From positions 27,652,001-27,716,000 of the forward strand of contig NC_083287.1 in NCBI RefSeq assembly GCF_963506605.1: a DNA stretch of 64,000 bases, written 5' to 3'. This document shows positions 10,914-33,823 of this stretch, piece by piece. Origin of the DNA: Zootoca vivipara. Taxonomy: Eukaryota. Both the position numbers and the translations under genes were made by a program. Position 1 is the first letter of the stretch. Each line of letters begins with the position of its first letter. Under the pieces are notes generated by a model. It ran no database searches, was not told where the DNA came from, and saw nothing but the letters and a program-made list of their open reading frames with translations.

Positions 10914-11059
10914 AATAGAATCCTAGAATTTGAAAGGATCCTGAGCATCATCTAGTCCAACCCTATGTAATGCAGGAATATGCAGTTATCCCATGCAGGG
11001 ATTGAACCTGCAACCTTGGCATTATCAGCACCATGCTCTAACCAACCGAGCTATCCAGG
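10914..11059 (-). mobile_element. tRNA-Ile-headed SINE with CR1-type tail
   Basis: Minus strand TAGCTCGGTTGGTTAGAGCATGGTGCTGATAATGCCAAGGTTGCAGGTTCAATCCC, then ATTCCTGCATT...GGTTGGACTAGATGA. Confidence 0.8.
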
Positions 11060-19847: not shown

Positions 19848-19868
19848 AAGCAAGATATTCTTAAACAA
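19848..19868 (+). CDS. DGKB: DGKB 21-nt microexon: KQDILKQ
   Basis: Long pyrimidine tract plus ctccag, GTAAGC donor, phase 0/0; matches recalled DGKB KQDILNQ. Confidence 0.9.
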
Positions 19869-20281
19869 GTAAGCATCGGTGGTGGTTTTTTTGTTTGCTT
19901 ATAATGTATCTGGCATGTTACTGATTTTATGGAGCTTTGCAGAAGCACTCAGACTTCAATGGCAACCTTCATTTTAATAAAACTCTTGATACTTTTTTTC
20001 TAGTTGCATGCACCTCTGCAAAAATGATACAGTTACAGAAAATGTAGAATATTGACTTAATGGTTACTTCACTTTCATACTGTTCCACCCCACCCCCACC
20101 GTTGTTTGTTGGGAAACTAATTAATAGACTTTATTGCCACTGTTTTCTGAGAAAGATGAAGACACACACGTTTTGTTGGACTCTGCAAAGACAGGGTCTC
20201 AGTTGTGCTGTCATATACATGAACTTTCATATACATGAATCCTGTTAAGATTGCATCCTTGTGGTATGTACAGAACAGCTC

Positions 20282-20282
20282 T

Positions 20283-20334
<52 letters not shown>

Positions 20335-20627
20335 TATTTATTTATTTATACCCTGCCCATCTGGCTGGGTTTCCCCTGCCACTCTGGGCGGCTTCCAACA
20401 AAAGGTTAAAATACAATAGTCTGTCAAACATTAAAAGCTTCCCTAAACAGTGCTGCCTTCAGATGTCTTCTAAAAGTCTGGTGGTTGTTTTTCTCTTTGA
20501 CATGGGGTGTGAGGGCGTTCCACAGGGTGGGTGCCACTACTGAAAAGGCCCTCTGCCTGGTTCCCTGTAGCTTGGCTTCTCACAGCGAGGGAACCACCAG
20601 AAGACCCTCGGCACTGGACTTCAGTGT
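20282..20627 (-). mobile_element. L2-clade LINE 3' fragment with (AAC)n tract at its tail
   Basis: Minus strand encodes RQRAFSVVAPTLWNAL-like ORF2 end; near-identical to 37460-37776. Confidence 0.85.
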
Positions 20628-22748
20628 TATATAGAATAAGTAAACCTATTCTTAAAATAGCATTCTGTGCACATTGGAATACTCATGGAGACCAGGATTG
20701 GACTGTGTGTTATTTATTTTACAAAAGAGGTGGATATTATGTATATGAGCAATCAGATTTTCAGAATTTGCATGAAATGCATTATCATCTACTTGCCTAA
20801 TTATCCTTATAAACTCCAGTCACAGAATAGCAGGAGAAGCTTAATTCATGACACTGGGTCATATAGATATTGTTGGAACTATAGACTAGTGATTCATTGT
20901 CTTGGTCCATATTTTGTAAAACTGTGGCTTTAAGCTGGTGTGTCTGACCTGTTTTTGTCAAAGTCCTTATCTGTAGAATGAGATGTTCTTCTATCCTGTC
21001 ACCTGTGAACTTCCTTGTTCATAATTACCCCCTAACTTAGAAAGGTCTCTTGATAGTAAGAGAGATTGGCTCCTATTTTTGGGTCCCAAATTTGAGGAGT
21101 ACGAACTGAGCTACACAGCTGCAAATAAAACATTTCAAATGTGTTGTAAAGTGAAATATACAAATGTGACACTAGATGGTGAAAGTGAGCTATGCAAAAT
21201 TCAATGTATGTTTTGAAACTTTTTTAAAAAAGCATTTTCACAAGCTTTTTTTATATGTGTGTAGATTCCACCTAAGAGTGTGGGAAAGAATAGACTAAGT
21301 TAGAGCAATAGAAATATATTTCTTTGTATACAGTCTTGCATGTTTTTGAACCTCCTCTGGCTATTTTCACATTGTACGCCTCCAGAATGAGGGGCTATGT
21401 CCTTTGTATTTGTATACATACTAGACATCAGCCTCTTGGATGGAGTAGACACATGCTTAAAGGAACTTTATAAGGATGCTTCAACAAAATATATTGTGCA
21501 TCCTGAAAGTCATTGTGCATATATCACTCTTATTGACATGCTTAATAATCTCTAAATTATTCCAGACATGATTTTTTGTTATGGGTGTCGTAAATGATTT
21601 CAGTATGATACACCACCCCTCTCTTCTCATACTGTTTTCATTTATGATGATGGTGGCTATGCATTTGTCGGACTATGTAGGGCAAAAGCATCTTGCTTGC
21701 TTTCCCTTGCAATTAGGGAAAAGAGGTATCCCATTATTTGTAGCTGTTTGCATATAGATATTGCAATTTATTTTCAGTGTGTTTGCCATGACACATAGAG
21801 CAGAAGTGTGCGGGTGTGTTTAGAGGACAGTGTGGACTAATAATTCTTACCTCACATGGTTCCCACAAGCTTGGTGACGCAGGGACATAATAAAGTATTC
21901 TTGACCACCAGCTGTAAAAATGAATAAGCTTACCTCTCCCATTAATACTACTCTCAGGATATTTCTTCTAAGACATCACAGATGCAGAGTCTGCCATTTC
22001 ATTAGTTTTGTATTCTGGTGTTGTGTACTGCATTCTTTGCCTTCATACAAATAAGAAGTTGCTCCTTCCCAGACTGGAAGAACTTGCACTTTTAATCTAA
22101 ATGTATGTAAAACAGATTGCTCTTTTCTAATACTGTTGTCTAGAAGACCAGGGATGAAATTTGTGTGATGGAGAAGTGCTGCACTTTTAGCATCAGTACT
22201 TAATAAGTTTCCCTCCCTCCACAAATCAGCATCAACAGTGTTGATCCATAGACAGTTAGGAGTTTGACTATTGCTGGAGAGGCAGGATGTGTGTGTCTAG
22301 AATTACATCCTTGTCATTGAGTTGTGTGAGTCAACAGTGATGCAGGTGGCGCTGTGGTCTAAACCACTGAGCCCCTTGGGCTTGCCGATCAGAAGGTTGG
22401 CAGTTTGAATCCCCACAACGGGTAAGCTCCCATTGCTCTGTCCCAGCTCCTGCCTAGCGGTTCGAAAGCATGCCAGTGCAAGTAGATAAATAGGTACCGC
22501 TGTGGCGGGAAGGTAAACGGCATTTCCATGCACTCTGGCTTCTGTCACAGTGTTCTGTTGTGCCAGAAGCGGTTTAGTCATGCTGGCGACATGACCCAGA
22601 AAGTTGTCTGTGGACAAACGCCAGCTCCCTTGGCCTGAAAACGAGATGAGCCCTGCAACCTCATTGTCACCTTTGACTTGGACTTAACTGTCCAGGGGTC
22701 AAAAATTCCTTCAGTAGCACCTTAAAGACCAACTAAGTTTTTATTTTG

Positions 22749-22786
22749 GTATGAGCTTTCGTGTGCATGCACACTTCTTCAGATAC
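22749..22786 (-). ncRNA. Minimal type I hammerhead ribozyme (antisense to DGKB)
   Basis: Exact reverse complement of 23992-24029. Confidence 0.8.
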
Positions 22787-22925
22787 AGTGAAATGGAAGT
22801 TTCCAGGCACTTATGTAGAGAAGGGGTGGGGAGGGGTGGGGATGGGGAGGGGGGATCACTCAGAAGGGTGGTGGAAATGGGTGATTGACTGACTGATAGC
22901 TGTTGATGACCGCAAACGACTGCAA

Positions 22926-23804
22926 ATGGTTTTGCATGAAAAAGCAAGGGTTGAGATGGCTGAACAATCCATCGTATACAGCCAGGCCTTACGTTACAAC
23001 CGCATCTGTTCCAACTCTACAGACAGAGAATCTCACCTAAGAGATCTACAGCAAACCTTTTTAGAACTAAAATATCCACCTGATGAAGTTAAACAACAGA
23101 TCAACAGAGCCAGACAGATACCTAGAGAGAACCTGCTGCAAGACAGACCCAAAAAAGAAAATAACAGAACACCACTAGTCATCACATACAGCTCCCAAGC
23201 TAAAACAGTACAACGCATCATCAGAGATCTACAGCCTCTCCTGGACAATGACAGCTCCCTCTCTCAAGCTCTGGGAGGAAGACCTTTCATTGCCTACAGA
23301 CAGCCACCCAATCTTAAACAACTCCTCACCCACAATAATACAACCACCAGACTTAACATGGACACTGGTACCAGAGCCTGCAATAAACCCAGATGCCAAC
23401 TTTGCTGCCACATACACCCAGACAACACCATTACTGGCCCCAACAACATCCAACATACCATCTCAGGACTATTTAATTGCTCATCCTCTAACATTGTGTA
23501 TGCCATCAAATGCCAACAGTGCCCTTCAGCTCTCTATATTGGACAAACAGGCCAAACCCTACGCCAAAGGATAAATGGACATAAATCTGACATCAGGAAC
23601 CAGAAGACAGAAAAACCAGTAGGAGAACACTTCAATCTCCCAGGACATTCTATACAAGATCTCAAAGTAGCTGTCTTACTACAAAAGAATTTCAGAAATA
23701 GACTGGAAAGAGAAGTTGCTGAATTGCAACTTATCACCAAGCTCAAAACCATGGAGGGACCTGGTTTGAACAGAGATATCGGGTTCTTATCTCATTATAC
23801 ATGA
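22926..23804 (+). CDS. Penelope ORF remnant: RT C-terminus, Cys knuckle and GIY-YIG endonuclease (292 aa; first 13 aa from the inverted arm)
   Basis: SIVYSQALRYNRICS, CNKPRCQLC, NIVYAIKC..C...YIGQTGQTLRQRINGH, E..LI..L.T..PGLN motifs; no internal stops. Confidence 0.85.
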   Translation: MVLHEKARVEMAEQSIVYSQALRYNRICSNSTDRESHLRDLQQTFLELKYPPDEVKQQINRARQIPRENLLQDRPKKENNRTPLVITYSSQAKTVQRIIRDLQPLLDNDSSLSQALGGRPFIAYRQPPNLKQLLTHNNTTTRLNMDTGTRACNKPRCQLCCHIHPDNTITGPNNIQHTISGLFNCSSSNIVYAIKCQQCPSALYIGQTGQTLRQRINGHKSDIRNQKTEKPVGEHFNLPGHSIQDLKVAVLLQKNFRNRLEREVAELQLITKLKTMEGPGLNRDIGFLSHYT

Positions 23805-23991
23805 TAAGCGATCTTCAGCCATCTCAACCCTTGCTTTTTCATGCAAAACCATTTGCAGTCGTTTGCGGTCATCAACAGCTATCAGTCAGTCAATCACCCA
23901 TTTCCACCACCCTTCTGAGTGATCCCCCCTCCCCATCCCCACCCCTCCCCACCCCTTCTCTACATAAGTGCCTGGAAACTTCCATTTCACT

Positions 23992-24029
23992 GTATCTGAA
24001 GAAGTGTGCATGCACACGAAAGCTCATAC
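23992..24029 (+). ncRNA. Minimal type I hammerhead ribozyme (sense to DGKB)
   Basis: GTAT-CTGAAGA-A-GTGTGCATGCACAC-GAAA-GC-TC-ATAC: CUGANGA/GAAA core, stem II hairpin, stem I GTAT/ATAC, palindromic AGCT stem III as in Penelope ribozymes. Confidence 0.85.
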
Positions 24030-24147
24030 CAAAATAAAAACTTAGTTGGTCTTTAAGGTGCTACTGAAGGAATTTTTTTATTTTACTTCGATCCAGACCA
24101 ACACGGCTACCTACCTGTGTCCAGGGGTCCTTTACCTTTTACCCTTT

Positions 24148-24702
24148 GCAATAGCAAAAAAGGCTAATGCTACCCCAGGCGGCAGCAGCCAAAGTATACT
24201 GTCCAGAGCAAGGGACGTAATGATACCGCTCTATTCTGCCTTGCTCAGACCACACGTGGAATACTGTTTCCAGTTCTGGGCACCACAATTTAAGAAGGAT
24301 ATTGACAAGCTGGAACATGTGCAGAGGAGGGCAACCAAGATGACCAAGGGTCTGGAAACCAAGCCTTAGGAGGAACAGTTGAGGGAGCTAGGTATGTTTA
24401 GCCTGGAAAAGAGGAGACTGAGAGGAGATGTGATGATAATCTTTAAATATTTAAAGGGCTGTCTCATGGAAAATGGAGCAAGCTTGTTTTCTCCTGCTCC
24501 AGGTGGTAGGGCTCAAACCAATGGATTCTAGTTACAAGAAAGGAGATTCCGACTAGACATCAGGAAGAACTTTCTTTCAGTAAGAGCTGTGTGACAGTGG
24601 AAGGTTGGGAGTTTGTGGACTCTCCTTCATTGGAAGTTTTTAAACATATGACCATCTGTAATGGATGCTTTAGTTGTGATTCCTGCATTGCATGGTGCTG
24701 GA
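24148..24702 (+). mobile_element. CR1 LINE 3' fragment
   Basis: AKKANA...IPLYSALLRPHVEYCFQFWAPQFKKDIDKLEHVQRRATKM; 3' end GATTCCTGCATTGCA. Confidence 0.92.
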
Positions 24703-25050
24703 GTGAAACAACTGTTATCTCTGGTTTAGACATAACATTAAGGCCAGGGATCATGGTTTGTCTTGTCCTCACTAGTATGTGGAGGAAACAGACAGCTCAG
24801 ATAGCTGTGTTCACTGTGAATCATTAAGTCTGGTTTGCTGTGACATGAAACTGGGTCAATAAAAGAAATATAGAATTCAGTGTCAGTTGAAAAATGGTCA
24901 TATGTGTGCACAACCCATGTGTAATAGAGGCCTTGTGCCTGCAATGATCTTCATATATTTTTAGAAATTTATGTGCCACCTTTCAAAACAAAATATTACG
25001 TTTCATCCTAAAATACTCAGATATAGATAATTCCCCGTCTTCTTCCACAG

Positions 25051-25204
25051 ACAATTGACTTAGAAGGATTCAAGTTATTTATGAAGACTTTCCTGGAGGC
25101 TGACCTCCCAGAAGAATTTTGTGAGCACCTATTTACCTCATTTGGCAGCAAAATCCCTTATAGTAGTCCTATGGTAAAGACTAAGCCTCCGCTCCTTCCA
25201 GGAG
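25051..25204 (+). CDS. DGKB: DGKB coding exon 4: [51 protein letters not shown]
   Basis: cttccacag / GTAAGT, 154 nt, type I DGK N-terminal domain. Confidence 0.96.
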
Positions 25205-25705
25205 GTAAGTAAATAGATAAAATGTGGTTTTCGGCTGTCTTTGCTATTGTTATTACTGGACCTATCATTATAGTTTTGGTTAAGGTCAAGGATTTAATGA
25301 AAAGGCTTTAATACTCCTTAGTGACTCACATCTTTTAGGAATGACTCAGCCTTCAGCTAGTGGGAGAGGGAGAAAAACAGCAGTCACAACTTTCATTTGG
25401 GCAGAGAGGGATAAAGGGTCAAGTCAGGAGCTTTGCTGGAGTTAGCCGTACTGAATGTAGTCTTTAACAAATACATGTTTGAAATGTTGTAAGAGGAAAA
25501 GCCATTGTTCGGGGAACAATTTGACAAGGGAATGGTTAATACCCCCAGCTGATTCTCCAATCCAAACCACTCTCCTTAAAGCAATGTTTTCAGTGGAACC
25601 AGGACATGTGGTTCAACCCGCAAGATGCTCAGTGGACAACCTTAGGTCCAAGTTTCATAGGTGCTTCCCAGTATTTTATTCATCTACTCTCCTAATATTT
25701 TTACA

Positions 25706-26344
25706 TGCGGCCCCAATCTCCATGAGCGGTGCGGGATTCCAGAGGCTGCAGGCACGCTTACCAGGGTCTGTGTTCCCTTTTGGGACAATGAGGCACAGCA
25801 GAGACTGTGATGTCTTTATGTTATATGGGTTTTATTTAGACATATGTACAACCTGACCCTAGATGCCGGGATTGCAGAGCATTCACATCCTATGAAGGCC
25901 TGGCTGCCCTCTCGAGGGCAGCGTTGGATCCAAAGGACAGTGAAAGGCCTTCCTCTGTGTCTCTTCGCTCCAGTCTGTTTTCCCCTGTTCACATGGAGTT
26001 CTGCCCCTCCTCCTCCTCCCTGCTAACCGACACTAGGAGCCCCCCCCCACAGCCTACACAGCTCAAAGTTGAAATGCTAAACCTGTGCTTTGCATCTGTC
26101 CACTCCCCCTTGCCTGGCACTCTTGCCCTCTAATGGTTTCCTTGATGGGCCACCACTGGCCTTTCCAGCTAATGGGCCATCCAGCTGGCATGACAAGTTG
26201 GCTTGGCTTGTCAGCATAACAATCCAGAGGGGGTTCTGTATTTAGCAACGTTTAATCAGAACTTGATTAGATCTGGCGTTTACTACATCCAGGTATTATG
26301 GGGTGAATCTGGCACCCAGGAATTTAGGTGAATCTGGCCCCACA
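25706..26344 (-). mobile_element. Possible solo LTR
   Basis: TG(C)GGCC...GGCCCCACA termini, AATAAA on the minus strand (~25830), GC shift; TSD unclear. Confidence 0.45.
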
Positions 26345-26870
26345 CAAACACACAACGTTATTCATTAAGCACTGAAGGTTACATGGATAGAAGGCCTCTG
26401 CATTTTCTATTGAAGCACAAGGGCTTCAGTATACAGCTTAGTTCTTATTTAGGCTCCCCCCCTCCACTTCTAGCACTCAATGCCTATTGAAATTACTGTG
26501 ACCAGATTGTATTTGTATTCCTGCCGTGGTTTGTACAAGGACATTAATTGTCTTGTTTTTGTTTGGATAATGTGCTCTTCGGGGGATTGCTGTTAATTAA
26601 TATGTACTAGGTTTTGTTCCTTGTACTAAGCAAATAAATGGTGTGTTCTAAAAGGGCTTTTTGTGTCCAAATTGCCTTCAAAGACAAAAGTTGCACATTC
26701 AAATTACACTATGCTGTTTTTTTAGAAAAGTAACAGCAGGTAAGTTTCCATGAAGGTGCAAATATTCTCAGAGTTAACCTGAGGAGCAAAGAACCAGTAG
26801 TATAGTACCGTTAATTAAAAACATTTGGACACCTAACAAAATAAGTGAGAAAGCTTTTGATTCATTTAAG

Positions 26871-26874
<4 letters not shown>

Positions 26875-26944
<70 letters not shown>

Positions 26945-26955
26945 CGCGCGCGCGC
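26875..26955. repeat. (TC)n(TG)n(CG)n microsatellite
   Basis: Direct reading. Confidence 0.97.
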
Positions 26956-27730
26956 TTATGAGCATGGTGAAAGGCTCTAGTTTGCAGTTTTTATAATGGG
27001 GAAACCTAGCCTTCTAACAGCTCTCAGTTCCCAGGATTATTGGGGAGAAGTAATGACTGTTTACAATTGTATCAGTGGACTCGGGTCTTTCTGACTCTCC
27101 TCTCCATCCATCTACACTTGCACTTAACCCAGCCTTCCAGAACTATCCCTGTTCCTTCTAAGGAGTTTAATGGCAGGTTACTTTCAACTGATGCTTTCCA
27201 CCAGGCTAAGGAGTTAAGGCATCTTTGGTGTTTGGGGCAGCTGCTATTCTCTTCCTCACATTTGTATCTGAAAAACTGGTGGGAATAGCAGAACACAGAA
27301 TACCGCATTGTCTGTACTCCCTTTTTGTTATCCTAGCAGAACTTTATCCTCTTGTTCTCCAACCTCCCTCCACTCTTCTGCCACTTTCTCAGTGTCTAAC
27401 AAGAAAGAAAAGCAGCTACTGAAAAGATTGCTCTGTTGCTGTTTTCCTTCCTTCTAATGGAAATGCTGGCAGTTCACTTGGGTAGTGGGGGTGAAGAGGG
27501 GGCTGGACTGTGGAGGAGAGGCCCAGATCTGTCCCAAGGAGGCAGTGGTTCTCCACTCTAGGTTTTGCCCATCGTTGGTACAAAAAAAGGTAACAAGTTT
27601 CACAGATGCTACAGGGAGAAATAAGTTTTTCTGAGCAGGAAATCCAATGTGGGAAGTCGTTTTTTAAAAGTTCTGTTTTATTGGTAAGCATTTGTTATTT
27701 TATTTTTTAAAAATGTGAATATTATTTCAG

Positions 27731-33614: not shown

Positions 33615-33694
33615 CAAAACCCTTGCAAGGCCTGCTCAGGGAATAGGTACAGCAAGTGACTCATTAAGTGTGGCAAAATATACAGGTATATTTT

Positions 33695-33823
33695 TAGTTA
33701 CAGGTAGGTAGCCGTGTTGGTCTGAGTCGAAACAAAATAAAAAAATTCCTTCAGTAGCACCTTAAAGGCCAACTAAGTTTTTATTTTGGTATGAGCTTTC
33801 GTGTGCATGCACACTTCGTCAGA
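33695..33823 (-). mobile_element. Short Penelope 3'-end fragment with hammerhead core
   Basis: Matches 23995-24118 of the long copy; core reads CTGACGA...GAAAGCTC. Confidence 0.88.

Follow-up and report, generated by a model that had tools for sequence, protein, structure and literature searches.

Published work describes several systems that come close to the insert that we analyzed in the DGKB gene of the lizard Zootoca vivipara (in a 64,000-nt stretch of DNA, NC_083287.1, positions 27,652,001 to 27,716,000 of the forward strand; hereafter "the window," in whose coordinates features are given). Pen2a_Av and the Pen2 derivative of Adineta vaga (PMC3846280; scheme in PMC8557442) resemble the window copy in being truncated at the 5' end and joined to an adjacent inverted arm, and the A. 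vaga Pen2 units likewise carry a tail at one end and lie, as a whole, between the copies of a short target duplication. The lizard duplication is about 12 bp and the A. vaga duplications are 8 to 10 bp; the window copy also differs from those units in having no direct pseudo-LTR at its 5' end and in belonging to a family of near-identical young copies whose hammerhead motif occurs 17,000 times. The minimal type I hammerheads in the pseudo-LTRs of metazoan Penelope-like elements (Cervera and De la Pena 2014, PMC4209133) share with the window motif a 4-bp stem I, a bulge before stem II, a palindromic minimal stem III, and a distribution mostly as single dispersed copies, with nearby pairs on opposite strands (on record at spacings of 100 to 700 bp). 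The lizard motif, a putative ribozyme, differs from them in being unusually uniform among copies, as has been reported for D. virilis. Finally, the Poseidon element PAc of Anolis carolinensis (Frangieh et al. 2024, PMC11167929) has, like the lizard element, a reverse transcriptase (RT) with a C-terminal GIY-YIG endonuclease and a hammerhead near the ORF start. Its tail is attributed to two RT start sites, and both strands of the target are cut and extended, as we infer for the lizard insert; its start sites lie inside the ORF, whereas the lizard ORF starts downstream of the tail and encodes an additional Neptune/Nematis cysteine motif.

How does the window copy compare in its own anatomy? DGKB lies on the plus strand, with 22 tblastn exon matches spanning C12:27,666,261-27,882,485. 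The first-pass annotation had placed the structure in the DGKB intron that follows a microexon, and the exon positions agree with that placement. The features of the locus are as follows.

19848..19868, plus strand: DGKB microexon of 21 nt (7 residues), the 5' boundary of the host intron
22337..22700, plus strand: host SINE interrupted by the insert; its 3' end picks up again at about 24130-24150
22689..22700, plus strand: target-site duplication, left copy, 12 bp
22701..22964, minus strand: tail-less inverted pseudo-LTR arm, 264 nt, with a complete hammerhead motif on the minus strand
22965..23807, plus strand: end of a 5'-truncated ORF (C-terminal part of the RT, Cys-rich linker, GIY-YIG endonuclease)
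23814..24077, plus strand: downstream pseudo-LTR arm, complementary to the upstream arm
23992..24029, plus strand: minimal type I hammerhead, predicted cut after C24025, stem III of one pair
24078..24117, plus strand: 40-nt tail, confined to the downstream end; full units continue from here toward the ORF start
24118..24129, plus strand: target-site duplication, right copy, 12 bp
25051..25204, plus strand: DGKB exon 3' of the host intron (PF14513; 25054-25203 is 98% identical to named lizard DGKB)

The 264-nt arms had been reported at these same coordinates around an 849-nt loop, and sequence comparison shows them to be perfect reverse complements (100%) with a spacer of 849 nt; the runner-up inverted repeat within 20000-27000 is only 24 nt long and 75% matched. 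The arms had also been said to have identical ORF translations. That the arms match is correct, but they are noncoding pseudo-LTR sequence 3' of the ORF stop, and their translations therefore add nothing. The insert ends at 24117 rather than 24077, once the 40-nt tail is included, and is flanked by a 12-bp duplication that was absent from the earlier description. The ORF fragment comprises 279 open codons followed by two stops, with a GIY-YIG match (PF01541, E 2e-05), and the inversion junction at 22963-22964 shows 2 nt of microhomology. The interrupted SINE, which we take to be of the Sauria type, has 78 related clusters in 1.22 Mb of six genes, and two of its other copies extend beyond the same flank and resemble the right flank in the window. 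Just 3' of the insert, at 24215-24660, lies a fragment that is presumably CR1-like and that served as an orientation control.

The assignment to Penelope made in the first-pass annotation is borne out by the RT and GIY-YIG ORF, the pseudo-LTRs, the tail, and the target duplication. EN+ Penelope-like elements are recognized by a single ORF that joins RT to a C-terminal GIY-YIG endonuclease, by pseudo-LTRs arising from tandem or partial-tandem units together with an inverted 5'-truncated copy, and by a 30- to 40-bp one-end tail with a short target duplication. A full unit (L061, on C2) has a 901-amino-acid ORF with both domains (PF00078, E 3.8e-12; PF01541, E 5.9e-05), 3030-bp units stand in tandem at C2:103.03 Mb, and the tail and duplication measure 40 nt and 12 bp. 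The translated linker contains C-x4-C-x2-C, in keeping with the CX2-5CxxC motif between RT and endonuclease that marks Neptune/Nematis (PMC8557442). The window insert differs from the full-ORF unit at 2 of 1153 bases, and the 30 copies that were checked from the best 40 of 1889 candidates are 99.8 to 100% identical. In anoles, Penelope insertions segregate at low average frequency (PMC7561263). The array to which the full unit belongs (L061/L062, C2:103,028,704-103,037,255) is partial-tandem, 100% identical between units, and has an uninterrupted 901-amino-acid ORF; the family looks currently active.

The fold-back form is routine in this family. Exact matches to the 35-nt hammerhead core number 17,000 genome-wide (8458 forward and 8542 reverse; a control pattern gave 0). 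The first 100 motif matches listed fall into 81 clusters, of which 12 are outward pairs, and motif neighbors no more than 2 kb apart are ordered minus/plus 13 times and plus/minus once. When 26 inverted units were chosen by hand from the listed motif matches and other loci, 23 had flanking duplications of 11 to 16 nt (the remainder had 8, 5, and 5) and 25 had a tail at one end. A sample of 1,219,267 bases inside six genes, chosen irrespective of the element, contains 37 clusters; 14 of these are inverted, every one outward, with one tail in 13 and a diverged arm in the fourteenth. Taken with the 17,000 motifs, the inverted share among sampled clusters makes it likely, as a rough extrapolation, that fold-back units number in the thousands. 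A single locus, one among probably thousands of such units, is consequently of little weight by itself. The family, being very young and abundant, with a duplication of fixed length and a single tail in nearly every unit, offers a natural experiment on two-ended priming and on a possible sense-strand bias.

In total, these observations lead us to hold with considerable confidence that the window contains a very young, 5'-truncated Penelope-like insert, likely joined head to head from two primed cDNAs and likely carried as an inert intronic passenger. The facts directly behind this reading are the anatomy, the duplication, the microhomology, the 2 differences in 1153 bases, and the like architecture in dozens of copies. 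In the mechanism that we propose, a staggered double cut would open the target with its nicks about 12 nt apart, and each cut end would prime its own cDNA. One would start from the tail site and its partner from a site about 40 nt upstream, as with the pair of start sites reported for the anole element; the cDNAs would then join head to head at their truncated ends, leaving an inverted arm and a one-sided tail, and the host intron with its insert would presumably be spliced normally. Priming from two ends fits the account of the anole element, in which both target strands are cut and extended, a dimer is predicted, and RT starts at two sites that equal the tail (PMC11167929). An alternative is offered by PMC3846280, which attributes inverted junctions to self-priming. 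The window copy is a real, ordinary new copy of an already published architecture (Arkhipova 2013; Craig 2021).

The 5' ends of the arms bear on the templates from which such copies are made. The count comes from the six-gene sample, another pile-up of 5' ends having been set aside because the pattern used to find it had partly shaped it. Of 51 arm ends, 30 are found 108 to 130 nt away from the tail end, either within the motif's 5' half or at its 5' edge, and 2 fall close to the cut site. This distribution suggests uncleaved templates, plus a stop or an RNA end at the motif. The bulk of the family consists of stubs of 90 to 135 nt (e.g., L087:689-782, L087:9233-9361, and window 33688-33823), and the pile-up of their 5' ends could possibly stem from an RNA 5' end, from a splice acceptor belonging to an older subfamily, or from an RT stop.

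The first-pass annotation had also recognized an intact-core minimal hammerhead on the transcribed strand with a predicted cut after C24025, and the anatomy agrees. As read from the sequence, stem I pairs 23992-23995 with 24026-24029, the core occupies 23996-24002, a bulge lies at 24003, and stem II spans 24004-24017, followed by GAAA at 24018-24021, the one-pair stem III, and the predicted cut site after C24025. In its conserved core, its short stem I, the bulge that precedes stem II, and its palindromic minimal stem III, the motif conforms to the minimal type I hammerhead, and a minus-strand counterpart lies in the upstream arm at about 22748-22786. An Rfam scan of the window at the gathering score detected no hammerhead; its sole match, a tRNA-like one elsewhere (10995-11053, minus strand), probably corresponds to the head region of a SINE derived from tRNA.

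Could the hairpin nonetheless affect its host gene? Inverted Alu pairs in human introns form intramolecular double-stranded RNA in pre-mRNA that could be edited, and the window hairpin is similar in this respect. It differs in stemming from one integration event and in being a perfect duplex, with editing here a possibility. The first-pass annotation had envisaged long double-stranded RNA as a substrate for ADAR or Dicer that could alter splicing of the microexon. One might accept the insert as a mechanistic by-product and still propose that its 264-bp duplex is edited or bound, and that carriers show a shift in DGKB output or in how often the microexon is included. We consider such an effect improbable. 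A perfect long duplex is predicted and, however it arose, could plausibly be edited; the transcribed strand of the insert has four acceptor-like AGs, one of them at 22782; and the 1.4-kb insert sits 0.9 kb from the next exon. Against this, both arms share one intron, so that no exon would be looped out. The distances of 2833 nt past the microexon and about 930 nt ahead of the next exon also exceed the 50- to 100-bp zones near mammalian splice sites that are depleted of non-full-length LINE copies; for LTR elements, the same source gives zones of 1 to 2 kb (PMC3088655). Furthermore, when 120 homologues were sorted by exon spacing, 60 had the microexon, 47 did not, 7 showed another arrangement, and 6 had no anchor, counts that reflect annotated isoforms in many only distantly related species. 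Because isoforms of both kinds occur across homologues, these annotations indicate that the alternative microexon probably predates the Penelope insert and that its alternative splicing does not require it. A literature search for DGKB together with the microexon and alternative splicing found no paper.

The first-pass annotation went further and proposed that the upstream arm masks a harmful sense-strand ribozyme, such that copies so armed are tolerated, or selected, in introns. The structural half of this proposal stands as a prediction: when the motif is folded with the upstream arm, every hammerhead base pairs with the arm in a duplex of -539.8 kcal/mol. The idea gains something from the anole element, whose hammerhead cut only with the element's own protein, and from the depletion of tandem hammerhead repeats in Xenopus introns (bioRxiv 10.64898/2026.07.22.740005), and since the lizard family has intact ORFs, its sense copies might be cleaved in trans or with help from the protein. 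For the anole element, insertion was possible without the hammerhead, and no RNA reads ended at the hammerhead site (PMC11167929). Folded without the upstream arm, the lizard motif is predicted to form barely at all (stem I pairing probability of 0.004 to 0.03 in three contexts). In assays on motifs from species other than Z. vivipara, lone minimal hammerheads showed no detectable cleavage and dimers showed little (PMC4209133), and the dimer requirement is reviewed in PMC7761336. We infer that the hairpin would form in the pre-mRNA and would bury a ribozyme that should in any case cut hardly at all when it stands alone as a minimal motif.

That the antisense arm is transcribed first had been read as protective. 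This order is automatic: given outward arms that both reach the motif, the antisense arm precedes the ribozyme on either strand, and the geometry is the same whichever way the unit is transcribed. The proposal had also led to the expectation that sense intronic copies would be enriched for inverted arms. The six genes lend this no support, nor do they support the claim that a sense insertion becomes tolerable through the arm. Unmasked sense solos are not depleted in this small sample, where they outnumber antisense solos 17 to 6 (P = 0.035; 12 to 4 for solos with intact cores, P = 0.077); correction for one missed inverted arm and one piece without a pseudo-LTR end gives 16 to 5. Controls in the same genes were balanced (38:36 for the SINE and 15:16 for the CR1-like repeat). 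Gene strand was assigned by tblastn for DGKB and by same-strand CUB or laminin-G exons flanking five 200-kb stretches, each assumed to be a single gene; 6 of 6 show an excess of T over A on the assigned strand, and five C12 clusters beyond the coding span of DGKB (six in one listing, seven insertions in another) were omitted because a search with PF04116 did not place the neighboring gene upstream. Within DGKB, inverted units number two, as do antisense solos, and there is a single sense solo. The sense solo, at C12:27,785,233 in another intron, has an intact core, a 12-nt duplication, and no masking arm. Given these data and the routine occurrence of the inverted outward form (14 of 37 intragenic clusters), masking as the reason for tolerance is very improbable, and such an account is unnecessary for explaining fold-back hairpins. 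Separately, window 33688-33823 (minus strand) is a second, older antisense solo stub in DGKB, 93% identical.

From 100% identical arms in an extremely abundant family, one might suspect that the assembly created the inversion out of a repeat of high copy number. This is scarcely credible: the 12-bp duplication is exact, the SINE continues across the insert, the tail is one-sided, and the junction shows microhomology, all in keeping with a rule seen at dozens of independent loci, diverged ones included, in an assembly of 48 contigs for 1.44 Gb. When contigs of four public DNA runs were compared with 20400-23813, those with unique flank stopped at about 22365 within the SINE in 4 of 4 runs, and no piece or joint listed from those runs crossed 22700 or 22964.

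The orientation data raise a further question: is integration itself polar with respect to host transcription? With the 40-nt tail as the query, the six genes contain 18 sense and 5 antisense matches (P = 0.011, post hoc and in a small sample), or 17 and 5 without the window copy (P = 0.017), and the 12 matches that cover the whole tail are all sense. This count overlaps the solo count and comes from a single unreplicated sample of six genes. We therefore offer only tentatively, and as somewhat short of an even bet, the reading that Penelope integration is polar, with each two-ended insertion using the tail site on one cut strand and the tail-less site on the other (as 13 of 14 and 25 of 26 units would imply) and the tail-bearing end facing the sense direction. 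Its source could be either a strand choice coupled to transcription or replication or the purging of antisense tails. Purging is conceivable because an antisense tail carries a near-consensus splice donor, the complement of 24109-24117 matching the donor consensus at 8 of 9 positions; in the window copy, the antisense arm is tail-less and thus lacks this donor. As an observation in its own right, the antisense pseudo-LTR carries the acceptor-like AG noted above, and the antisense tail carries the donor-like site. Tail strands in loci L031 to L060 (14 minus and 8 plus) were rejected as a control, as the loci overlap and their gene strand is unassigned. L1 shows the opposite strand bias, which is partly fixed at insertion (PMC5717806), and we found no report of strand bias in Penelope-like elements in literature outside subscription journals. 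If true, polarity would hold at the level of the family, the reverse of the L1 bias, with the DGKB copy as one instance.

Two other classes of hammerhead-bearing sequence were considered for the window and ruled out: a host-exapted intronic hammerhead, which would be low in copy number at a conserved site, does not fit 17,000 exact copies with near-zero divergence, and a non-LTR retrozyme, which is noncoding with tandem direct units, does not fit one motif per strand, an inverted arrangement, and an ORF fragment. Elsewhere in the genome, at L075:2820-5242, four to five 598-bp units stand head to tail, each with a pseudo-LTR, a hammerhead, and an ORF start; this array is of a retrozyme-like, internally deleted kind and could form dimeric hammerheads.
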